This document shows, piece after piece, positions 4,435 through 16,842 of a stretch of DNA of 64,000 bases. The notes beneath the pieces are model-generated. The model was given only the letters and a program-made list of their open reading frames with translations. It was not told where the DNA came from and did not search any database. A program made the position numbers and the translations under genes. Numbering within the stretch: position 1 is the first letter of the stretch; every line of letters starts with the position of its first letter. This DNA is from a virus. Location of the stretch: IMG/VR virus record IMGVR_UViG_3300046533_000687, positions 1 through 64,000 of that record, one strand, 5' to 3'.

Positions 4435-4815
4435 GTGGAGTCAGAGGCTCAGCCAAGCACGCAATTGGTTTCCAAAACAGAACCAAAACGCATTGGCACT
4501 GGCCTGGCCGGACCCGGCAGACCGAAAGGCGTCGTACCGAAGGCGACGCGCGAGGTACGCGACGCGGCACGTGCTCTTGTTGATGATCAAGACTATCGCG
4601 CTGCACTTCGCGTGCGCTTGAAGGCTGGAACTGCTCCTCACATGGAGACGTTGCTCTGGCATTACGGGTATGGCAAGCCCACTGAGCGGATCGAAGTTAA
4701 GGATACGACGAATGAGTTCGAAGATCTGACCGCTGAGCAGCTGCGTGAACGTGCCCGCCTCATCGCTCACCGCATCATCGATCAACCGCAGCAAGACGAC
4801 CCGAGCGTGCATTGA
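4435..4815 (+). CDS. terS: terminase small subunit
   Basis: GPGRPKG motif, YGYGKP, position immediately upstream of TerL. Confidence 0.65.
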   Translation: MESEAQPSTQLVSKTEPKRIGTGLAGPGRPKGVVPKATREVRDAARALVDDQDYRAALRVRLKAGTAPHMETLLWHYGYGKPTERIEVKDTTNEFEDLTAEQLRERARLIAHRIIDQPQQDDPSVH

Positions 4816-6260
4816 CATCGTCGCACCTCGATCTGCCAGAGAAGCTTACTGTCACTGAGGCTGCGGCAGAGCTAGCGCGTGTTGAAACTGCGCTCGCTCG
4901 CCTTTCACTCCTCGATTTCACGACATACACGAAGCGCGACTACGAGATCAACTGGCATCACGTCATCGTCGCCGAGGCGCTCGACCGCGTCCTAGCTGGC
5001 CGATGCCGCCGTCTGATGATCTTTGAGCCGCCGCAGAATGGCAAGAGCGAGCAGGTCTCGCGACGCTTTCCGGCTTACGCCTTTGGCAGGCGGCCGAACC
5101 TGCGTATCATCGCGTGCTCCTATTCAGATACCTTGGCGCAGGATATGAGTCGAGACGTACAGAAGGTGATGGACACGCCGGAGTATCGCGTCCTATTTCC
5201 TCACTCTCGCCTGGCAGAATCGCGCGATGCCGAGAAGAGGACGCAGGGGCAGTTCGACGTCGTCGGTGGCGTCGGCTATTACATTGCGTCAGGTATCATG
5301 GGGTCGATCACCGGTCGTACGGCGGACATCGGAATCATCGACGATCCTGTCAAGAACCGCGAGGAAGCTGAGTCGGAAGTCTATCGCGACCGTGTCTTCG
5401 AACAGTACAAGTCAGCGTTTGCTACGAGGCAGTTTGGTAGTGACGGAGCGATCATCCTGTGCATGACGCGGTGGAACGAGGATGATCTTGCCGGTCGCCT
5501 GCTGCGGATCGCGGCCGAACATCCAGAAGCCGATCAGTGGGAGGTTGTCAGTCTGCCTGCGATCGCCGAGGAGGTAGACGCGCACCGTCAGGTCGGCGAG
5601 CCGCTGTGGCCCGCCAAGTATCCGCTTGAGGAGCTTGCTCGCAGGCGAGCAGGACTCGGCGCGTATGACTGGGCCGCGCTCTACCAGCAGCGACCGGCGC
5701 CGTCAGGCGGAGGACTGTTTCAAGAATCGTGGTTCGCCAATAGCTTCGTTGACGCCGCGCCTGTCAACGCCCGCCGTGCGCGTGGTTGGGACACGGCCGG
5801 TACCGAGAATGATGGCGACTGGACGTGCGGCGTGAAGATTGCTGAGGCGAACGGCATCTTCTACGTTGAAGACGTGCGCCGGCAGCAGGTCGGGCCGTCG
5901 AAGGTCGATGCACTCATCCGCGTGACGACCGAGGCGGACGGCGTTGCGTGCGCGGTGCGTGAGGAGAAGGAAGGTGGCTCGGCGGGCGTCGCGGTCGTCG
6001 CCGCGAGGGCGAAGACGCTGGCCGGGTTCAACTACGCCGGCGTGCAGATTAGCGGTAGCAAGGTGACTCGGTGCAAGCCGTTCCGCGCGCAGTGCGAGGC
6101 GGGCAACGTGCGCATCGTGCGCGGGCCGTGGAACGCGGCTTACGTCCAGGAGCTGTGCGGGTTTCCGACAGCGAAGCATGACGATCAGGTTGACGCGTCG
6201 TCGTGTGCGTTCAACGCCGTGCTGCTCGAGCCGGTCATCGACGACTGGTTGGTCGTATGA
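4812..6260 (+). CDS. terL: terminase large subunit
   Basis: PPQNGKS Walker A, IIDDP Walker B, MTRW..DDL.G, ALYQQ.P, RGWDTAG, HDDQVDA nuclease motif. Confidence 0.95.
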   Translation: MTSSHLDLPEKLTVTEAAAELARVETALARLSLLDFTTYTKRDYEINWHHVIVAEALDRVLAGRCRRLMIFEPPQNGKSEQVSRRFPAYAFGRRPNLRIIACSYSDTLAQDMSRDVQKVMDTPEYRVLFPHSRLAESRDAEKRTQGQFDVVGGVGYYIASGIMGSITGRTADIGIIDDPVKNREEAESEVYRDRVFEQYKSAFATRQFGSDGAIILCMTRWNEDDLAGRLLRIAAEHPEADQWEVVSLPAIAEEVDAHRQVGEPLWPAKYPLEELARRRAGLGAYDWAALYQQRPAPSGGGLFQESWFANSFVDAAPVNARRARGWDTAGTENDGDWTCGVKIAEANGIFYVEDVRRQQVGPSKVDALIRVTTEADGVACAVREEKEGGSAGVAVVAARAKTLAGFNYAGVQISGSKVTRCKPFRAQCEAGNVRIVRGPWNAAYVQELCGFPTAKHDDQVDASSCAFNAVLLEPVIDDWLVV

Positions 6261-8278
6261 GCGCCAAACCCGAAGGCGTCCTCAAGTCCCTCACCTCGGT
6301 CCTCCTCGAGCGCTATCGCTTCTTCCGGCAGGCGGGTGTCAGCTTTGGCGGCGCACGCGACCTCTACGCGGTGCTCGGCTACCAGCGCATCCTGCAGTAC
6401 CTCGACTATCGCCTGCGGTACCAGCGCGGCGGCATCGCGAAGCGCATCGTCGAGGCGTATCCGAAGGCGACGTGGCGCGGCGGCGTGGAGCTGTATGAGG
6501 ACGAGGATGCCGCGAAGGACACCGCGTTCGAAGAGGCGTGGAAGTCGATTCAAGATCGCCTGAACGTCTGGTCACGCCTGCAGGCCGCCGACATCCTGGC
6601 CGGCCTGAGCACGTTCTCCGTCCTCCTCATCGGCGCGCCTGGCGAGCTTGAGACCGAGCTGCCGCGCGGCACGTCGCCGGACAGGCTGCTCTACCTCCAG
6701 CCCTACTCAGGCGGCGGCGGTCCGCCCACGTCCAACACGCTGCTCATGCAGAACCACACGCAGGGCCTGGACTCGGACTGCTCGATCAAGAACTTCGACG
6801 TCGATCCCAAGAGCGTCCGCTTCGGTGAGCCGCTGACCTACCTGCTTCGCCGCACGGATATCAACCTACCGGGGCAGATGCGCGAGATCCATTGGTCGCG
6901 CGTCATCCACGTGGCCGAGGGCTGCCTCGACGACAACGTCTACGGCATGCCGACGCTGGAGAACGTGTGGAACCTGCTTGATGATCTGGACAAGGTCACC
7001 GGCGGCGGCGCTGAGGCGTTCTGGCTGCGCGCGAATCAGGGCTTGCACCTGGACGTCGACAAGGATATGGGGCTGCCTGGTTCCACGAGCGCTGGGCTGA
7101 GCGCCGACGAGCGGAAGGTGCTGCACGAGAAGGCCGAGGAGATCCAGCACCAGCTGCAGCGCGTCCTGGTCACGCGCGGCGTGACCGCCACGCAGCTCGG
7201 CTCGGACGTTGCCAACCTCGGACCGAACGCTGACGCGATCCTGAAGCAGATCGGCGGCAGCAAGGGCATCCCGACACGCATCCTGACGGGTTCGGAGATG
7301 GGGCAGCTGGCCAGCGGTCAGGACGCCGACAACTGGCGCACGCAGGTCCAGGACCGACGGACGAGCTATGCGGGGCCGATGATCGTGCGGCGGCTCGTCG
7401 ACAGGCTCGTCGAGTACGGCTACCTGCCGAAGCCGAAGCAGTACGACATTGCGTGGCCTGTCGAAGAGGATATGTCGGAGCTGGACAAGGCGACGCTCGC
7501 GCTCACGCTGACGAACGTCAATAAGAACTACGGCAGCGACGTGTTCGACGCGGACTTCATCCGCGAGAAGGCGTACAAGCTCGAGCCGCTCGAGGAGCTG
7601 CCGCAGTGGGAGTTCATGTCGGAGCTGGACAAGGCGACGCTCGCCACGAAGCTGGCGATGGTCAACAAGGAGATGGGCATCACCGTCTACACGGACGACG
7701 AGATCCGCGACATGTCGTTCGGCAAGGCGCCGCTCACAGACGCGGAGAAGGTGCCGATCGGGGCGCCCGAGCGCATCAGCGTGACGCAGCCGCCGGAGCT
7801 GGGGGCGGACGGACAGCCTATACCACAGCCCGCGCTGCCGAACACGCCGGAGATCAAGGCGGCGCTTAGGGCGCTGGAAGAGGCGATCGAGGCGGACGAT
7901 GCGGAAGCCATCCTGAAGATACTTGGTGACGTGCCCGGACATGAGTTCCACGGGAATCAGTGGACCGAAGGCGGCGCGACGGGCATGATCTTTAAGGAGT
8001 ACGCTACGACAGGTTATGGACCTGGCGAGCGTGGGGCTGAGAAGGCTCGTGCCGCCGCGCAGGAAGCGCACAAGGCACTGACGAAGGCTGGCTTCGTGAA
8101 GGCGGCACCGACGGAGCATAAGCATATCGCCGGCGAGAAGATGGGCAGGTCGCAGGCGTATTATTCCAGCTCGAAGAAGTCGACGACCGAGTATGCGCAT
8201 CCCGACGGGCGAAAGGCATCGTTGCAGGCCACGTACGAAAAGACTAGCAACAGCAGCGTTCGTGTGAAACATTCATGA
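6257..8278 (+). CDS. portal protein (DUF1073-like) with C-terminal cargo extension
   Basis: Y.RGGIAKRIVEAYP...W, IHWSRVIH, IP.RIL.GSE.G.LAS..D..NW; follows TerL; extension starts with GDVPGHEFHGNQWT. Confidence 0.85.
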   Translation: MSAKPEGVLKSLTSVLLERYRFFRQAGVSFGGARDLYAVLGYQRILQYLDYRLRYQRGGIAKRIVEAYPKATWRGGVELYEDEDAAKDTAFEEAWKSIQDRLNVWSRLQAADILAGLSTFSVLLIGAPGELETELPRGTSPDRLLYLQPYSGGGGPPTSNTLLMQNHTQGLDSDCSIKNFDVDPKSVRFGEPLTYLLRRTDINLPGQMREIHWSRVIHVAEGCLDDNVYGMPTLENVWNLLDDLDKVTGGGAEAFWLRANQGLHLDVDKDMGLPGSTSAGLSADERKVLHEKAEEIQHQLQRVLVTRGVTATQLGSDVANLGPNADAILKQIGGSKGIPTRILTGSEMGQLASGQDADNWRTQVQDRRTSYAGPMIVRRLVDRLVEYGYLPKPKQYDIAWPVEEDMSELDKATLALTLTNVNKNYGSDVFDADFIREKAYKLEPLEELPQWEFMSELDKATLATKLAMVNKEMGITVYTDDEIRDMSFGKAPLTDAEKVPIGAPERISVTQPPELGADGQPIPQPALPNTPEIKAALRALEEAIEADDAEAILKILGDVPGHEFHGNQWTEGGATGMIFKEYATTGYGPGERGAEKARAAAQEAHKALTKAGFVKAAPTEHKHIAGEKMGRSQAYYSSSKKSTTEYAHPDGRKASLQATYEKTSNSSVRVKHS

Positions 8279-10899
8279 CCCCTCAACTCGCCGCCCAGCT
8301 GCTCCTCACCGCGCACCGCAACGTGCGGATGCGGCAGCTCGGCGATCTGCCAGGGCATGAGTTTCACGGGAATCAGTGGACGGCGAAGGTGGGTGATCTG
8401 AATGATTTCCCGCATCTAGCTGCCTTGCGAAAAATTGCTAATGACCCCCGCATTGCGGAGATCGAGGGTGGTGGGTTAGATAGTGGAAGAGTATTCTTGC
8501 ATGCTTCTTTAGGGTGGCTTTTCGGGGAGCAGCGTTCAAAGTCTGTCGGAAGCCGTGAAGAAATTAAACAGGCCATGAAGCTATTGCGTCATGAGGTGCC
8601 GAAGACGCTCGGAGATCTGCCCGGCCACGAGTTTCATGGGAATCAGTGGACAGCGTATCACGGAACGACAGCTGAGAACGCAGCGAAAATTTTGAAAGAA
8701 GGGCTCAAGCCAGACAAACAGGGGGACATCTGGACGACGACGGATCTAATTGAAGCGAGAACCTACGCGCGTGCCGCAGGTAATAATTCCGTGATCTTAA
8801 AGATCAATGTACCTGCGCATGATACGACGAAGTATGACGAACGTAAAGGTGGCAAAACGCTTCGCGTATATAAGGAACCACTCAAAGCTGAATACGTGTC
8901 GATGCATTCCGCGCATGTCAGCGGCGGGCCTTTTGGAGAATGGAAGACACTCTCCGCCATCCCCGTCTCCTCCCGCGACCTCACCCCGCTCCACAAGGCC
9001 GCCGACGCGCACTACGCGTCCATCATGCTCGCGGTGAGCGCGGCGTTCATGAGGGGGAAGAAGGCGCTGAGGGCGAGCTTGCGAGGAGCGGAGTTCAATC
9101 CTGATGAACCGCGTGATGAGAAGGGGCAATGGACGAGCGGCGGCGTTCAACCAGAAGAAAAGGCGATCGCTGAGCGTCTTGGGCTGCCGACGACCTATAG
9201 CGGTACGGACAGCATGACGTCTCTTAGCGGTCGTTTGAATCCGGAGTCAGCTCGTGCCTACTTTGCGGGTAAGGCAGTTGATAACCCGATTCCGAAGAAC
9301 AAGACGCTGACGATGGAGCAAGCTCAGAGGTTGCCCATCATGATGAGCGGCGAGACGAAAGAGGTTAGTATCGCGCCACTCAGGTCAACGCAAGACTACA
9401 TCCAACCGAGTGCTGTTGAAAAGTATAAGAACGGCGAAGGGATGACCTCGCGTCCTGTCGTCGCCACGATCCACGGCGAAGAAGTGCTGTTGAACGGCAA
9501 TCATAACGTGTTGGCGGCGCAACTACGAGGCCAGGACACGATCAAAGTTCAGCACCTTGGCGACTTCTCCAAGCATGCCGACTATATCAAGAAGGTCGAC
9601 GCGCAAGGCGGCGGATTTACGTCGTTATCTGCTTCTCCGAACATCTCCGCAGCGGTCTCCGCCATCCGCGCCTCGCTCGTCCACGACCTGCCGCCGGCGC
9701 TGGAGAAGGCGTATGTGGCGGGTGGGGGAACGGTTGGCGGGTTGAAGGCTGCCGGCGACGTCGAAGGGCATCCGTTTCATGGGAATCAGTGGACGGAAGG
9801 CGGCGGTACGACGCGCGAAGAGAAGATCGCTCGCATCAAGGAGATCAACACGCAGCTGAAGCCCATCCTCTCTTCAACTGGCGGCAACCTGACGGCAAAG
9901 CAGGCGCTGCAAGTAGAGAAGATGACTGGCGAGATTCAAGGGCACTCGTTTGACATTGCGAAGCCTATCACGCCTGAGAAGGTTGCCGAGAACATCGCAA
10001 AAGCTGGCGGCACAGCAGCGCAGAATACGATGAAGCCGGAGACGATCGCGGTGGCGCAGCACGACCTCCTGCAGAACAAGGACGTCTACTCGGCTATCAC
10101 GAAGTCTGCGACGGGTTCTTGGTTCAATCGCGATACACCCATCGACGACATCATGAACGGCAAGAACCCGAAGGTGAGCGCAGACCAGTTCCGTGCGACG
10201 TTCGAGAAGACGCGCGAGACGCTGCGAGCACAGTATGGCGACAAGGTGCCAGCATATCGGGCCACAACCAATCAGAGGTCCAAGGCGACGCAGAACTGGG
10301 CGACGACTCGAGAGTTTGCTGCCAACTTCGGCAAGAATATCGTGGAGCGTAGCATTCCGATCAGTTCTATCATCGGAGCGAACGTTGGCTTGCGTGGCAC
10401 ATATCACGAGTTGATCGTTGATGCGCGAGAGATTAGGGGCGCTGCTACTAAATTCAAGATGCAGTTCGACGCCAAGAACTCTAACGCCGCCACCTGGGCC
10501 CTGACGCACGCCACGCAGATCGCCGACGACATCAGCCAGACCTCGAAGGACAACATCGCGCTGGCCGTCGCGCGGGCGCAGGAAGAGGGCGACCTCGGCG
10601 AGCAGTACGACGAGATCCTGGACGCCGTGGGCGACGAGGCGCGGGCCTCCCTGATCGCGCGCACCGAGTCCATGACCGCCGTCAACGAGGGGCAGCGCGA
10701 TGCCTGGGACCAGGCGCTCGAGAAGGGCTTGCTGACGGAAGACAACCGCGTCGTCTGGATCGCCACGTCGGATGCCTGCCCGGAGTGCGAGGAGCTGGAC
10801 GGCGAGGAGCGGACGCTGGACGGCGAGTATCCTGGGGACGGTGGAGACGGTCCTCCTCTCCACCCAAATTGCAGGTGCACGGAAGGGATCATAGGATGA
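8275..10899 (+). CDS. MuF (SPP1 gp7-like) head morphogenesis protein with four inserted cargo domains
   Basis: C-terminal RA.LIARTE...A.NEG, W.AT...CPEC..LDG, PPLHPNCRC; internal ART-like and ParB-like inserts. Confidence 0.85.
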   Translation: MTPQLAAQLLLTAHRNVRMRQLGDLPGHEFHGNQWTAKVGDLNDFPHLAALRKIANDPRIAEIEGGGLDSGRVFLHASLGWLFGEQRSKSVGSREEIKQAMKLLRHEVPKTLGDLPGHEFHGNQWTAYHGTTAENAAKILKEGLKPDKQGDIWTTTDLIEARTYARAAGNNSVILKINVPAHDTTKYDERKGGKTLRVYKEPLKAEYVSMHSAHVSGGPFGEWKTLSAIPVSSRDLTPLHKAADAHYASIMLAVSAAFMRGKKALRASLRGAEFNPDEPRDEKGQWTSGGVQPEEKAIAERLGLPTTYSGTDSMTSLSGRLNPESARAYFAGKAVDNPIPKNKTLTMEQAQRLPIMMSGETKEVSIAPLRSTQDYIQPSAVEKYKNGEGMTSRPVVATIHGEEVLLNGNHNVLAAQLRGQDTIKVQHLGDFSKHADYIKKVDAQGGGFTSLSASPNISAAVSAIRASLVHDLPPALEKAYVAGGGTVGGLKAAGDVEGHPFHGNQWTEGGGTTREEKIARIKEINTQLKPILSSTGGNLTAKQALQVEKMTGEIQGHSFDIAKPITPEKVAENIAKAGGTAAQNTMKPETIAVAQHDLLQNKDVYSAITKSATGSWFNRDTPIDDIMNGKNPKVSADQFRATFEKTRETLRAQYGDKVPAYRATTNQRSKATQNWATTREFAANFGKNIVERSIPISSIIGANVGLRGTYHELIVDAREIRGAATKFKMQFDAKNSNAATWALTHATQIADDISQTSKDNIALAVARAQEEGDLGEQYDEILDAVGDEARASLIARTESMTAVNEGQRDAWDQALEKGLLTEDNRVVWIATSDACPECEELDGEERTLDGEYPGDGGDGPPLHPNCRCTEGIIG

Positions 10900-10929
10900 T
10901 AATGACCTTCACGAGCGGGGTGCTCAACG

Positions 10930-11280
10930 GTGCCACGGCCTCATGAACCTCACGAGTCGGACTACGTCGTACGGTACAGCGGTCCTGAACGTCGGAACGG
11001 CATTGGCAATGGCGACTGGACGTCGCTCAAGGCGTGGGCGAACGCGATCGGGATCATCGGCATCCCAGGCGCCATCGCTATCTATCTCGTCTACATCGGC
11101 GCGACGGAGATGCCAAAGTTGGTAGTCAACAGTTCACAGGCGATCGTCGAGATTCAGAAGACGCGCGACACGCTCCGTGACCATATCGTGCAGACGGATA
11201 TCCTCATTCGTGCCATCGAGCGGACGTGCGTTGGCGTCGCGAAGGACTCCGATGCTAGAGCGAGATGCCTTGATAAGTAG
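10930..11280 (+). CDS. membrane protein (holin-like)
   Basis: YSGPERR motif, one hydrophobic segment, coiled-coil tail. Confidence 0.5.
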   Translation: MPRPHEPHESDYVVRYSGPERRNGIGNGDWTSLKAWANAIGIIGIPGAIAIYLVYIGATEMPKLVVNSSQAIVEIQKTRDTLRDHIVQTDILIRAIERTCVGVAKDSDARARCLDK

Positions 11281-11626
11281 TACCTGGAAGGGGTGGATCT
11301 GGCGCGTCGGGGTGGCGCTGGTCCTGTGCTTGTGGGCCATCGTCGGGCTGGAGGCCGCGTTCAGCATCCGCGTCATCTACACGAACGCCGCGCAGATCGC
11401 GGAGGTCAACAGCGAGATCGTCGAGATGCAGAAGATTCATTCGTCAAAGATGACGGAGATGTCCTTGCGTCTCGACATGCTCGAGAAGGTCCTGTTCGGC
11501 GACGTGCTGGCGAAGATCGCCGCGCAGCCGAAGGGCATCGAGACGTGGCAGCAGAATCGTGACAAGGAGATGCGCGAGCGGATCAGCAAGCTGGAACTCT
11601 GGCGTCTGCATCAGGACGCGCGATGA
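11270..11626 (+). CDS. single-TM coiled-coil protein (start uncertain)
   Basis: Hydrophobic WRVGVALVLCLWAIVGL followed by heptad-rich region. Confidence 0.5.
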   Translation: MISSTWKGWIWRVGVALVLCLWAIVGLEAAFSIRVIYTNAAQIAEVNSEIVEMQKIHSSKMTEMSLRLDMLEKVLFGDVLAKIAAQPKGIETWQQNRDKEMRERISKLELWRLHQDAR

Positions 11627-11627
11627 C

Positions 11628-11813
11628 ATGTCTCTCGATCGCGGACAGGGCGACAAGAAAAAGTTTCCGGCCAAGGACCTTGAGCGGCTCTACAAGAAGG
11701 GTATCGAGCAGCAGAGGATTCGAGGCGATCAGTTGAACGCGATTATCGGCGGGAAGGTCTACGACCCGGACGCCTGGTACGACGTCACCGAGAAGGGTGT
11801 CGAGAAGTTGTGA
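11628..11813 (+). CDS. small hypothetical protein
   Basis: MSLDRGQGDKKK..., typical codon usage. Confidence 0.55.
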   Translation: MSLDRGQGDKKKFPAKDLERLYKKGIEQQRIRGDQLNAIIGGKVYDPDAWYDVTEKGVEKL

Positions 11814-11962
11814 CATGGGCATACCTGGCCGTGGCGTTCGTGGCAGGATATTGTGCAGGGCTGAGCAGGGCACGGCGGCTCATTCGTCAGTTGACAGAAG
11901 ACTTGAACCGTAGCGCAACGAACTTACAGGGCGCGGTTGACGCGCAGAAGGATACCAGATGA
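11810..11962 (+). CDS. small membrane protein (not in ORF track)
   Basis: GTG start, MTWAYLAVAFVAGYCAGL..., GTGA/ATGA overlaps with both neighbours. Confidence 0.55.
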   Translation: MTWAYLAVAFVAGYCAGLSRARRLIRQLTEDLNRSATNLQGAVDAQKDTR

Positions 11963-12180
11963 TTCTCGATGATCTCAAGGTGCAGGTGACGGCGACGACG
12001 GATGTGGAAGCCTCTGCCGTGGTGGCGCTCAACGGTGTAGCAGCTCGCATTCAAGCGGCCGTGGACGCGGCGATCGCGGGCGGCGCGACGGCGGAGCAAC
12101 TGGCTCCGGTGCAGGCCGAGGTCGACGCACTGAAGGCATCGTCAGACGCGCTGGCGGCTGCGGTCGTGGCGAATACGTAG
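11959..12180 (+). CDS. Ala-rich helical phage protein
   Basis: AGGA RBS, amphipathic helices ending AAVVANT. Confidence 0.7.
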   Translation: MILDDLKVQVTATTDVEASAVVALNGVAARIQAAVDAAIAGGATAEQLAPVQAEVDALKASSDALAAAVVANT

Positions 12181-12187
12181 ATGAGTC

Positions 12188-12373
12188 ATGGGCCGGAGGC
12201 AGCGCTATTCGACTCCGGATCAGGATGCCTTCATCTATACGCTGCAGGTAGAACTGGTGGCGCTTGAAGACGCTCTTACCATATTGGAGCGCAGAATCAT
12301 GCTACTACGAGACCGAGTGCAAGAGGAACTGGCCAAGAGGTGGGGCAAGGAATGCCCCGTGAAGAAGGCTTGA
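12188..12373 (+). CDS. small coiled-coil protein
   Basis: 61-aa ORF filling the operon gap. Confidence 0.45.
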   Translation: MGRRQRYSTPDQDAFIYTLQVELVALEDALTILERRIMLLRDRVQEELAKRWGKECPVKKA

Positions 12374-12374
12374 T

Positions 12375-14624
12375 ATGCCAAATCGTCCTGAGCATACCGA
12401 CAAGATGAAGGCCTGCGTGGCGAAGCTTCAGGACACGCATGATGATTCGTCTGCCTACGCCATCTGTACGGCGTCGTTGCAGAAGGCTGGCGAGCCGGTC
12501 TTCGTGGGGGCTACGGCCGGTGGTGCGGAGGAGATGAGGCTGCTGGGCGATGTTCCTGGACATGAGTTCCATGGGAATCAATACACTGGTGAAGGCGGGG
12601 CTGCAGCACGTCAAGAACGCATCAAAGAAATTGACAAGCAGATCACAAAGATAGCCGTGGGTCCCAATACGCCCCGCGCAATCAAAGAACGCATGCAGAA
12701 GATCGCCCCTTTGGTTCAAGAGCAAGAACTGCATAAAAATGTTCTTGACCCTACGCGGCCACAAGCCATCTTAGCTTCCTCAAAATTGACAAAGCGCTCG
12801 GATGGCGGATATGACGTACAGCATGAAGGCGCGAAGATTGGAGCGCTGGAGCCGGTAAGTTTCACTGGATTCAAGGCCGTTAACAGTGCGCAGCAGATGA
12901 CCAGCCGCGAGGGGTTCAAGGCGCTATACGGCGACAAGATCGTCAACTCGCAAGGTACTCGTAAGGAAGGGCACGAAGCGATCGCGAGAGCGCACTCAGA
13001 CGTATTGAGAACCCGACTTACTGGCGCTGAAGGTTATGTATTTGACGACGTCGACATAACTTCTCTGCGTACGCTCCACCTCGTCGGCGCCACAGGCGTC
13101 GTGCGCACCGAGATGTTTGAAGGACGCGAGCACCTCGTCGTCCCGCTCGTCGCGCTGATGGAGGGCGTCATCCACGCCATGAACGCCGAGACGCCGGAGT
13201 TCGTGCCGCTGGCCACGCTGCAGAAGGCGGCGGCAACGTGGAACGGCCGTCCTGTCACCATCGGCCACCCGTCGCGTGGCGGGGTTCAGTGCTCGGCCAA
13301 CGACCCCGGCATCCGTGAGTCGCATGGCATCGGCACGATCTTCAACTCGCGCGTCGTGGGCACGAAGCTGCTACAAGAGGCGTGGATCGACAAGGCGAAG
13401 GCGAAGAGGCTTGACCCGGCGATGCTCGCGCGCCTCGTGACAGGCGAACGCGAGGAGGTCAGCGTCGGGGCGTTCGTCATCACGGACGGCACGACGGGCA
13501 GCTACAGGGGCAAGCCGTATCGCGCGCAGTGGCTGGAGACGATCGGCGATCACCTCGCGTTCCTCCCCGGAGGGCGCGGCGCCTGCTCCGTGGAGATGGG
13601 ATGCGGGACGCACCGGGCCGCGATGCGGATGTTAGGAGGATCGATGGAACTGCTGGGATCGATGCCGGACAAGGCGCAGGTCGAGATCAACAAGCCTGGT
13701 CATCCTGCGCACGGCAAGAAGGGCAAGATCACGTCGTCGAAGGGCGACATGCATACTGTCGGCGATTATGGCACGTTCAAGCAGTCGGAGTTGAAGGCTG
13801 CAGCGGATGGCGAGGAGGCCGCCGAGCTTGTCGGCTACAACCTGCTGCGCACGCACCTCGACACGATGGGCAAGGCGTGGGACGAAGCCTCCGGCATCGT
13901 GAACGAGCTGATCGCCGACGAGACCGAGAACCCAACCGAGACGGCTGCGGAGGAAGATGCCGAAGAGGAGGTCGAGTCGGTACGGCTTGACTCTGTCATG
14001 TCTCTGATGTCTGTCATCATGGCGATCGCGTCGCAGGCCATGTCGTGCTGTGCGGTCATGAATGCGCCGGAGGCGACAGACGTCATGCCGCGCTACGGGG
14101 CGATGCCGATGATGCCCTGCCCGACATGCGACGGCACTGGTCAGGTGAAAGATGGCAAGCAGTCGGACTGCCCAACGTGCGACGGCACGGGCGAGGTCGC
14201 CAAGTTCAAGGCGGCAGCTGGTTCACGTCACAACAAGAACGACCAGCAGATGGTTCAGGCAATTCACGATCAAGCTCAGGCGCTGGGTGCGCAGTGCGAC
14301 CGGGCGAACTACAAGATGCTCCGCGACATCTCGCAGAAACAACGCGAAAGACTTCCGGATGCAGATTTCGCTGGCAAGGGCACGTCCTTTCCCATCAAGA
14401 AGCCGGAGGACGTGTCGGCGGCAGCGAGTTCAATCGGTCGGGCGGGCGCGGGCAACTATTCGACGGACGAGTTGAAGGCGAACATCATCAGGATTGCCTA
14501 CCGGAAGGGTGCATCGTTCGTCGCGCAGCTCCCGGAGGCATGGAAGAAGAAAGCGGATCACAAAGCAGCAGCAAACGATCCAAACCGATTCTACATCGAG
14601 TCGGTTCTCAAGGGTGTACGATGA
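12375..14624 (+). CDS. prohead protease (DUF2213-like) polyprotein
   Basis: WNGRPVTIGHP, EVSVG, DHLAFLPGGRGACS...GCG core; N-terminal GHEFHGNQ cargo; C-terminal CxxCxGxG x2 and other small domains. Confidence 0.8.
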   Translation: MPNRPEHTDKMKACVAKLQDTHDDSSAYAICTASLQKAGEPVFVGATAGGAEEMRLLGDVPGHEFHGNQYTGEGGAAARQERIKEIDKQITKIAVGPNTPRAIKERMQKIAPLVQEQELHKNVLDPTRPQAILASSKLTKRSDGGYDVQHEGAKIGALEPVSFTGFKAVNSAQQMTSREGFKALYGDKIVNSQGTRKEGHEAIARAHSDVLRTRLTGAEGYVFDDVDITSLRTLHLVGATGVVRTEMFEGREHLVVPLVALMEGVIHAMNAETPEFVPLATLQKAAATWNGRPVTIGHPSRGGVQCSANDPGIRESHGIGTIFNSRVVGTKLLQEAWIDKAKAKRLDPAMLARLVTGEREEVSVGAFVITDGTTGSYRGKPYRAQWLETIGDHLAFLPGGRGACSVEMGCGTHRAAMRMLGGSMELLGSMPDKAQVEINKPGHPAHGKKGKITSSKGDMHTVGDYGTFKQSELKAAADGEEAAELVGYNLLRTHLDTMGKAWDEASGIVNELIADETENPTETAAEEDAEEEVESVRLDSVMSLMSVIMAIASQAMSCCAVMNAPEATDVMPRYGAMPMMPCPTCDGTGQVKDGKQSDCPTCDGTGEVAKFKAAAGSRHNKNDQQMVQAIHDQAQALGAQCDRANYKMLRDISQKQRERLPDADFAGKGTSFPIKKPEDVSAAASSIGRAGAGNYSTDELKANIIRIAYRKGASFVAQLPEAWKKKADHKAAANDPNRFYIESVLKGVR

Positions 14625-15735: not shown

Positions 15736-16842
15736 ATGGAACAGGAAATGAGATTCACGGCGGCAGCGGCAAACAGCCCGCTGGCCAGCGTCATCATGAA
15801 CGCGTTGAAGGGTAGCGGCGGGTGGTCGGTCGACGCGATGCGCCAGCCGGGCATCGACCTGCTCAACGCGGCAGAGTACGAGAACGGCTACCGGTTCCGT
15901 GCGGCAGGTCCTCTGCAGGACAAGGCGCAGGTCGTCATCGACAAGGCGGTCGTCGAGGTCGGACTGCAGCGCCTGACGATCGCGGCCGACATCATGGCGG
16001 CGGGGCTCACCTACACGCTGTCGGATCCGCTCAGCATCGCGCAGCTGGAGTGGAACTCGATGAGCAAGTCGGGAGCTGCACAGCGCACGATGTCACCATC
16101 GGCGAGGGGTGAGAACTCGATGCCCATCATCACGGTGAATCGCCTGCCGATCTACCTGACGACGGACAAGTTCGAGATCGACATCCGGACGCTCAAGACG
16201 TCGCAGCGGATCGGCACGCCGCTCGATACGTCGATGGTCAAGCAGAAGGTGCGGTCGGTGAACGAGGCACTCGAGGACGCGATCATCAACGGCGCCACGA
16301 CGCTGGACGGCCAGGCGCTTGCCGTCTCCGGCTACTCGGCGCCCGGCCTCCTGAACGAGTCGCATGTCAACACGCAGAACCTGACGGCTGCTGCGTGGAC
16401 GACGACCCCGAACGGCCTGACGATCCTGACCGAAGTGCAGGCGATGATCACGAAGCTGCAGGCCGACAAGAAGTTCGGTCCATATCGGCTGTACGTCGGC
16501 ACGCAGATCTCGAACGTGCTTGACACCGACTATAGCACGGCGACCAACACGGTGACGACGATCCGTGAGCGCCTGCTGATGCTCGACTCGCTGCAGGCGA
16601 TCCGCACGGCGGACCTCCTAACCTCGGGCAACGGTGCGACCCCGTCCATCGGCAATAAGGTCATCCTGCTGCAGATGACCTCGGACGTGGTCGACATGGT
16701 CGTCGGACAGCCGCCGACGGTCATTCCGTGGACGTCGCTTGACGGGTTCACGATTCACAACCTGATCATGGCGATCATGATCCCGCGCGTGAAGAGTGAC
16801 TATGAGGGCAACTCCGGCGTGTGCGTCGGGACGACGGCGTAG
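15736..16842 (+). CDS. major capsid protein (HK97 fold, linocin/encapsulin-like)
   Basis: LPIY...F.I.IR.L..S.R.G.PLD, GPY.LYV, IMIPRV; strong RBS and codon bias; position. Confidence 0.85.
   Translation: MEQEMRFTAAAANSPLASVIMNALKGSGGWSVDAMRQPGIDLLNAAEYENGYRFRAAGPLQDKAQVVIDKAVVEVGLQRLTIAADIMAAGLTYTLSDPLSIAQLEWNSMSKSGAAQRTMSPSARGENSMPIITVNRLPIYLTTDKFEIDIRTLKTSQRIGTPLDTSMVKQKVRSVNEALEDAIINGATTLDGQALAVSGYSAPGLLNESHVNTQNLTAAAWTTTPNGLTILTEVQAMITKLQADKKFGPYRLYVGTQISNVLDTDYSTATNTVTTIRERLLMLDSLQAIRTADLLTSGNGATPSIGNKVILLQMTSDVVDMVVGQPPTVIPWTSLDGFTIHNLIMAIMIPRVKSDYEGNSGVCVGTTA

Follow-up and report, generated by a model that had tools for sequence, protein, structure and literature searches.

The stretch of DNA analysed here (the window) spans 64,000 nucleotides (nt), positions 1 to 64,000 of the IMG/VR virus record IMGVR_UViG_3300046533_000687, and represents most of that 75.5-kb record, which is 92% complete. 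Its head genes are arranged in the order TerL (4812-6260), portal (6203-8278), MuF (8275-10899), five small open reading frames (ORFs), a DUF2213-type prohead protease (12375-14624) and the capsid protein (15736-16842). Three of these genes carry copies of a 14-residue peptide, G-D-[VL]-[PE]-G-H-[EP]-F-H-G-N-Q-[WY]-T (hereafter tag 1): one copy in the portal, three in MuF and one in the protease. These five copies had been reported in a sequence-only reading of the window, and both pattern matching and translation recovered them. The degenerate DNA pattern for G-H-x-F-H-G-N-Q has exactly five plus-strand matches (nt 7937, 8353, 8623, 9766 and 12558), compared with 0 of 100 dinucleotide-preserving shuffles containing any copy, and six-frame translation places the full motif at amino acids (aa) 575-588 of the portal, aa 23-36, 113-126 and 494-507 of MuF and aa 58-71 of the protease. 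No further copy of tag 1 was found across the whole 75.5-kb virus record. Synonymous variation between the copies, also claimed in that reading, is seen at the Gly (GGA/GGG/GGC), His (CAT/CAC), Phe (TTC/TTT) and Gln (CAG/CAA) codons.

Tagged modules in three head genes

Each tag is followed by a module that differs in base composition from the gene that carries it. The coordinates given in this section for pieces, tags and modules of the three genes are on the plus strand. The portal core (aa 1-574; 6203-7924; Phage_portal_3, 3e-19; phrog_146, 1.3e-52) ends in a putative protease site, K-I-L, immediately before tag copy a (GDVPGHEFHGNQWT; 7925-7966), and a C-terminal putative cargo module of 103 aa with an isoelectric point (pI) of 9.7 and no family match completes the protein (7967-8278); this module is absent in the close relative L112, introduced below. 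In the protease, an N-terminal piece (aa 1-57; 12375-12545) with the last residues R-L-L precedes tag copy e (GDVPGHEFHGNQYT; 12546-12587) and a module of about 157 aa (12588-13058; pI 9.2; no family match). In the relative L063 the N-terminal piece adjoins the protease core directly, and both L063 and a further relative, L092, lack a module at this place. The protease core and C-terminal region follow at 13059-14624. The core matches PF09979 (2.5e-8; 34.5 bits against a cut-off of 22) as well as phrog_530 and phrog_2229, sequence matches that denote a head maturation protease.

The MuF gene is the most heavily loaded of the three. Core piece A (aa 1-22; 8275-8340), an N-terminus conserved among MuF relatives, ends in R-Q-L and is followed by tag copy b (GDLPGHEFHGNQWT; 8341-8382) and module 1 (8383-8610; about 74 aa; pI 9.3; no family match), which has K-T-L as its last residues and no counterpart in L112. 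Tag copy c (again GDLPGHEFHGNQWT; 8611-8652) then heads module 2 (8653-8955). Core piece B (aa 228-272; 8956-9090) is a helix, modelled by AlphaFold2 (AF2) at aa 237-269 with a predicted local distance difference test score (pLDDT) of 74-84; its DNA is 97% identical to that of L112 from nt 8956, and its last residues are R-G-A. Behind it lie a second, different tag (tag 2; EFNPDEPRDEKGQWT; 9091-9135) and module 3 (9136-9639). Core piece C (aa 456-493; 9640-9753), a helix in the AF2 model, ends in K-A-A ahead of tag copy d (GDVEGHPFHGNQWT; 9754-9795), and module 4 (9796-10443; 216 aa; pI 9.5; no family match) ends in R-G-A. Core piece D (aa 724-874; 10444-10899; 99% identity to L112 from nt 10444) contains the Phage_Mu_F domain (PF04233, 4.3e-12; 47.2 bits against a cut-off of 29.6), which lies C-terminally at aa 760-869 and is modelled confidently (pLDDT 80-94), although the AF2 model of the whole protein is weak overall (mean pLDDT 56). 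All MuF modules are N-terminal to or within the MuF core, and the protein ends in the MuF domain. The claim that inserts split the MuF core was borne out: pieces B, C and D adjoin each other in three shorter relatives (P0017, P0018 and P0012), so the intervening modules are inserts.

Two of the modules resemble known folds. Module 2 appears to be a Tpt1/KptA-like ADP-ribosyltransferase (ART) fold (NF002013, 3.8e-9; PF01885, 1e-3; each below its curated cut-off), and module 3 a ParB/sulfiredoxin (Srx) fold, for which AF2 is confident at aa 360-445 and the top Foldseek matches all share this fold (E ~2e-3). Proteins of relatives carry ART-PolyVal, NUDIX, ParB_N (PF02195), 2H and InPase domains. 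The MuF protein of the window accordingly combines a sub-threshold Tpt1/ART-like domain and a ParB/Srx-fold domain with two modules lacking a family match. For the portal module, MuF modules 1 and 4 and the protease module, Pfam searches of the single modules (E<=1) and one Atlas search gave no usable lead. No peptidase domain was detected in MuF or the portal by Pfam, PHROGs or NCBIfam, and among the small ORFs downstream of MuF, which are without family match, no immunity gene was identified.

The sequence-only reading had each motif opening an unrelated domain of lower GC content. The difference in composition is clear, with a GC content of 0.49-0.58 in the modules behind the tags versus 0.62-0.71 in the cores of the three genes. 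Complete unrelatedness does not hold for every module, since MuF module 4 and the protease module have a stretch of about 22 residues in common right behind their tags (window 9796-9867 and 12588-12653; E = 0.002). This stretch reads E-G-G...R-x-E...R-I-K-E-I, and hints at either a common sub-element or recombination between the two genes. Except for the ParB module, the modules of the window are basic (pI 9.2-9.7), and the cores are acidic (pI 4.2-5.2). Basic charge was rejected as a general trait of tagged modules, the wider set having a median pI of 6.4.

The protease/scaffold protein contains a DnaJ-type CxxCxGxG zinc-finger pair at aa 580-613 (window 13725-14621), and matches to Anti-TRAP and DnaJ_CXXCXGXG also recur in other tag-bearing proteins.

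Distribution of the tags and exchange of modules

Tag 1 is widespread. Its DNA pattern occurs in at least 115 IMG/VR stretches, and a logo built from 362 instances among the matches listed reads [VIL]-x-K-G-D-[VL]-[PA]-G-H-[EP]-F-[HR]-G-N-Q-[YW]-T followed by a Gly-rich run, with G, H, F, G, N and Q invariant. When a tag profile of 39 positions was scored against 1.84 billion cluster representatives, 2,345 proteins reached E<=1e-3, of which 511 passed E<=1e-10 and 98 passed E<=1e-30, and a single protein had as many as nine copies; the domains downstream of the tag are very diverse, mostly without a recognised family. A scan of species-representative genomes with the DNA pattern gave 24 matches, about 10 of which were true tags, all in metagenome-assembled genomes (MAGs), namely of Verrucomicrobiota, Acidobacteriota, Bifidobacteriaceae, Dehalococcoidia, Bacteroidales and Armatimonadota. 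The remaining matches were rejected as chance or as an unrelated GHQFHGNQC string. The latter, R-x-G-H-[QE]-F-H-G-N-Q-C-x-R-I-[DN]-L-[LF], was seen at four loci (L124, L136, L139 and L143) in gammaproteobacterial genomes and MAGs, and may be an off-frame reading of a conserved gene, distinct from the phage tag.

The placement of the tag within proteins is equally regular. In 126 of the 215 ORFs with a complete N-terminus the first tag (at its H) lies 10-40 residues from the start, in just 6 of 207 ORFs it lies less than 75 aa from the C-terminal end, and the spacing between copies never falls below 75 aa. From these positions and spacings, it follows that the tag is, with few exceptions, succeeded by a domain of at least roughly 100 residues. 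We divided the proteins into 412 tag-delimited segments (the stretches behind each tag plus the N-terminal stretches ahead of the first), which fell into 194 BLAST clusters, 147 of them singletons. The recognised families form a head group (portals of three Pfam families, MuF and proteases of four families) and an effector group (ADP-ribosyltransferases, PI3/HipA-like kinases, pentapeptide repeats, zeta toxin, NUDIX, ParB, 2H, InPase and topoisomerase IB), and there are no conjugation domains among the family matches of the tag-bearing proteins. In other phages the tag heads unrelated domains in their hundreds, some of them within long polyproteins, where it links one domain to the next. Stand-alone genes with the tag some 20-30 residues in are also found arrayed beside head genes, including five in tandem at L018, and the genes adjoining tagged genes include portal, terminase, XkdF-type protease, ParB and SNF2. 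These observations agree with the earlier proposal of a plug-in system, in that the modules headed by the tag are unrelated and occur in portals, MuF, proteases of four families and numerous separate genes adjacent to the head genes. At seven loci (L030, L048, L057, L060, L090, L097 and L100) we saw a variant with a G-P-G-S-G insert, K-G-G-P-G-S-G-x-x-x-G-H-x-F-x-G-N-Q, which coexists with ordinary K-G-D tags within the same phages.

The header of MuF module 3, EFNPDEPRDEKGQWT at nt 9091, had been taken for the opening of a sixth module, and it is indeed present there. It is not a degenerate copy of tag 1 but a member of a second recurrent tag that is likewise widespread, matching the header [FW]-[DN]-[EP]-x-x-[HQE]-P-R-D-x-x-G-[QRK]-[WF]. 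The two tags are unrelated in sequence and co-occur within proteins, as in P0060, which contains four copies of tag 2 together with copies of tag 1. A MuF relative of 885 aa, P0007 (NCBI and ENA), is without tag 1 and has two tag-2-like headers and a precomputed match to Intein_splicing (PF14890); it may represent an intein inside a MuF cargo protein.

The most direct view of modularity comes from L112, a phage fragment 97-99% identical to the window whose protease is 99.2% identical in protein. A block of DNA homology at 6733-7912 ends 13 nt ahead of the portal tag. The L112 portal stops seven codons after this point, and a 220-nt gap follows in place of the portal module (reverse complement 1213-1434; window ~7925-8275); this stretch contains stops in all three frames. 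Homology resumes at 8956-9788, stopping inside the third tag 1 copy of MuF at G-N, one codon before the Gln, and resumes once more at 10444 to continue to the end. The L112 MuF protein has four tags and different modules: its Tpt1/ART-like module is 37% identical to that of the window and sits at another insertion site, and module 4 is replaced by two other tagged modules, the last residues of which are R-H-L. Looking at the relatives, as the sequence-only reading had suggested, thus revealed a missing portal module, other MuF modules and homology breaks at the tags, an outcome that favours the plug-in proposal. Four more relatives (L053, L063, L019 and L045) have other modules behind the portal tag, and in L063 and L092 the protease tag stands behind the core instead of ahead of it. 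Cassettes are exchanged between near-identical phages at the tag, and the window-L112 pair shows that the putative cargo is swapped on very short evolutionary timescales.

Residues ahead of the tag and the prohead protease

All five copies of tag 1 in the window, as well as tag 2, are preceded by [KR]-x-[LA]. Counting back from the tag, we refer to these residues as P3, P2 and P1; across loci P3 and P1 are kept, while P2 is free to vary. Two classes of site emerge, with 78 loci having only [VIL]-x-K, 21 having only L or A at P1 (mostly with K or R at P3) and a single locus being mixed. The class follows the type of protease. All five loci with a DUF2213 protease are of the L/A type, with the site [KR]-x-[LA], and by record this protease was found in 6 of 20 L/A-type versus 0 of 30 K-type records. 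Conversely, all 14 loci with an XkdF-like S78_2 protease are of the K type, with the site [VIL]-x-K, and matches over the cut-off were present in 7 of 30 K-type versus 0 of 20 L/A-type records. A Mu-like protease occurs in three L/A-type records, which have L or A at P1 without K or R at P3. On the basis of this covariation, the residues before the tag are read as the P3-P1 site of the prohead protease, with the tag on the prime side.

Several observations argue that the site belongs to the phage rather than to the tag. In 10 of 10 loci containing both tags, the upstream site of tag 2 is of the same class as that of tag 1. In addition, the unrelated modules that end just before MuF piece D, at a recombination boundary, do so with R-G-A | ATKF in the window and R-H-L | ATKF in L112, both of which fit the site, and every tag of the window follows it. 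The proposal that modules are cut free at maturation gains indirect support from the co-variation of the P3-P1 residues with protease family, and the cut itself is predicted from these sequences. The capsid protein (window 15736-16842) has R-A-A | G at aa 55-58, about 57 residues from its start, which fits [KR]-x-[LA]; a cut there would remove a short propeptide, and the match to such a short site may be due to chance.

In structure the tag is predicted to be an unstructured linear motif. AF2 models it as coil, at low to moderate confidence, both within MuF and alone with 149 homologous windows, and no Pfam, NCBIfam or PHROGs model covers it. DUF5872, which gave seven matches, was rejected as a model of the tag; it matches a 45-aa domain ahead of it. 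In four viral records (L145-L148, one of them at G004:C1:5960-6180) only the first 45 positions of DUF5872 match, ending in FDVYPSAVANGWVVQEYKRRGGTY, and are followed immediately by K-P-V-x-K | G-D and the tag, so that a truncated DUF5872 is, by sequence, the upstream piece of the tagged proteins in these records.

Proposed cargo system and competing explanations

We lean, with slightly better than even confidence, towards a phage-type polyvalent head cargo system in which a lineage-specific protease site is combined with an invariant tag that would be kept on the released module; cleavage, packaging and a reader of the tag are all predicted elements of this model. The cassette would consist of protease site, invariant tag, Gly-rich linker and module, inserted in proteins that are already built into the procapsid. 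The insertion points are the C-terminal end of the portal, the N-terminal region of MuF, where the cassettes separate helices, and the stretch leading up to the protease core. As heads mature, the DUF2213 protease would cut after [KR]-x-[LA], immediately in front of every tag and again where module 4 ends on its right-hand side. The modules so freed would be basic polypeptides of 10-25 kDa, comprising the Tpt1-like ADP-ribosyltransferase, the ParB/Srx-like domain and others without family match, would begin with G-D-x-x-G-H-x-F-H-G-N-Q-[WY]-T, and would stay inside the capsid before passing into the host together with the DNA. Such a tag could serve as a prime-side docking site common to related head proteases, or as a packaging or ejection contact.

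A number of points weigh against this proposal. Part of the association between site and protease may be explained by shared ancestry, as the records involved are related and mostly fragments. By chance, [KR]-x-[LA] occurs about three times per 100 residues, terminase included, and a site so short and frequent is informative only through its fixed position. One L112 tag is off-pattern, standing five residues from the called MuF start after S-T-L. Two of the six modules of the window are annotated, at sub-threshold or fold level only, and four have no annotation. No cultured phage with the tag was found in a tblastn search of 50,697 cultured phage records with a 22-aa tag window; a search with the whole MuF protein had matches in Arthrobacter and Microbacterium phages, all confined to the C-terminal MuF core. 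Finally, no reader of the tag emerged from the analysis; of 50 records only 18 gave a MuF match, as did 2 of the 6 that are complete.

One alternative is that the tag is purely a handle for packaging, retention or ejection, the modules staying tethered uncut to portal, MuF and protease, and the upstream residues being kept for non-proteolytic reasons. The invariance of the tag across at least three protease families and several portal families is in keeping with such a role, as is the established ejection of SPP1-type MuF proteins themselves (cited in PMC5512222) and the injection of N4 virion RNA polymerase-type polyvalent proteins uncut (PMC5512222). However, since portal, MuF and protease already reach the procapsid, a targeting signal would be redundant in these fusions. 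Nor would a handle alone account for the conservation of P3 and P1 beside a variable P2, for a class of site that tracks the protease family and is common to two unrelated tags, or for the same site pattern closing module 4, where there is no tag. We consider this explanation unlikely.

A second alternative regards the tag mainly as a recombination junction or linker relic, short shared DNA serving to shuffle cassettes and the peptide having no biochemical role. Homology between the window and L112 does break exactly at tags, and over 29-83 nt the DNA copies of the tag are 85-93% identical, whether compared inside one of the two phages or from one to the other. Yet synonymous sites differ among the copies, and the peptide is conserved across thousands of clusters and in MAGs of many phyla with unrelated flanks, which argues for selection on the peptide and makes the relic interpretation quite improbable. 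Self-cleavage of the tag, for instance by Asn-driven backbone cleavage at G-N-Q aided by the invariant His and with no external protease, would fit the invariance of G, H, F, G, N and Q in the 362 instances among the matches listed, whatever the protease family, and inteins as well as several maturation steps of virus capsids are established cases of Asn-mediated autoproteolysis, but we regard it as very improbable, as AF2 predicts no folded surroundings for the tag, unlike known autoproteolytic sites, which belong to folded domains, tag 2 has no Asn at the equivalent place, and the protease-linked upstream residues would be left unexplained.

The tag stays the same whatever the lineage of protease, portal or host, and would therefore be a handle read by a component that these phages share. 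MuF was rejected as an unlikely universal reader, because it was not found in most of the complete tag-bearing records. A bolder and rather doubtful extension is that G-H-x-F-x-G-N-Q-[YW] and PRDxxG[RQK][FW] together constitute a universal address label, independent of the protease and read by a head component that tailed phages share, for example the portal channel, capsid interior or DNA. If so, any tagged domain would be retained in the capsid and injected, and the label would be a portable signal across phages of many bacterial phyla.

The proposed cargo system shares features with several known ones. Papers of 2012 and 2017 had already described both effector domains fused to MuF or portal and polyvalent, head-packaged proteins of several domains (Zhang et al., PMC3482391; Iyer, Burroughs, Anand, de Souza and Aravind, PMC5512222), and the polyvalent protein gp47 was found in phi24B virions by proteomics (bioRxiv 10.64898/2026.04.10.717836). 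The sequence-only reading had called the architecture unrecognised; in light of these papers this does not hold for the fused effectors, and it stands for the shared tag, since full-text searches of the tag strings and their variants, together with PMC5512222, PMC5576092 and PMC3482391, yielded no description of tag 1 or tag 2. Like polyvalent proteins (PMC5512222, PMC3482391), the proteins considered here unite several effector-type domains (ART, ParB, NUDIX, kinases, InPase) in one polypeptide and are fused to MuF or portal in a portal-terminase head module, here also to the protease; head packaging and injection were proposed for them with proteolytic processing as a theme, as we do here. 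The same papers propose processing by in-built zincin metallopeptidase or papain-like domains, with the zincin a common but not obligatory theme, whereas none was detected here, and their main texts are without a shared junction or leader tag. Moreover, the modules of the window lie within the MuF N-terminal region rather than being appended, and on the protease.

The capsid-targeting sequence (CTS) of T4 (IPI-III and Alt, with the gp21 protease; PMC3012670, PMC9958956) offers a second parallel, comprising a short leader, a cut by the head protease, basic cargo, an ADP-ribosyltransferase and injection, each of which has a predicted counterpart here. In T4 the leader belongs to one phage lineage, stands at the extreme N-terminus and, once cut at L/I-x-E, is discarded. 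The conserved element described here, unlike the CTS, lies behind the predicted cut, would be kept, recurs internally and is common to phages with different protease families and hosts of many phyla. The system of the window works like T4 CTS/gp21 but is no member of it, with internal tags, a [KR]-x-[LA] site and a DUF2213-type protease. MuF polymorphic toxins (Jamet et al. 2017, PMC5576092) likewise combine the MuF head protein with variable toxin-like domains exchanged between related phages, but have one C-terminal toxin domain after MuF, often an immunity gene, and no junction motif is mentioned for them; several modules here are N-terminal to or inside the MuF core, and, as noted above, an immunity gene was not identified.

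The prevailing view is that phages deliver preformed enzymes into the host to disable its defences. To our knowledge, how such cargo enters the capsid and is released is understood mechanistically mainly for T4. The apparent novelty lies in the shared junction tag, in how widely it occurs, and in a site ahead of it that is specific to the protease family. If the proposed system is correct, it would allow injected effectors, most of them without known domains, to be recognised in metagenomes by a sequence rule, predict cleavage specificities for three poorly studied families of head protease, and supply a candidate portable tag for loading proteins into phage capsids.

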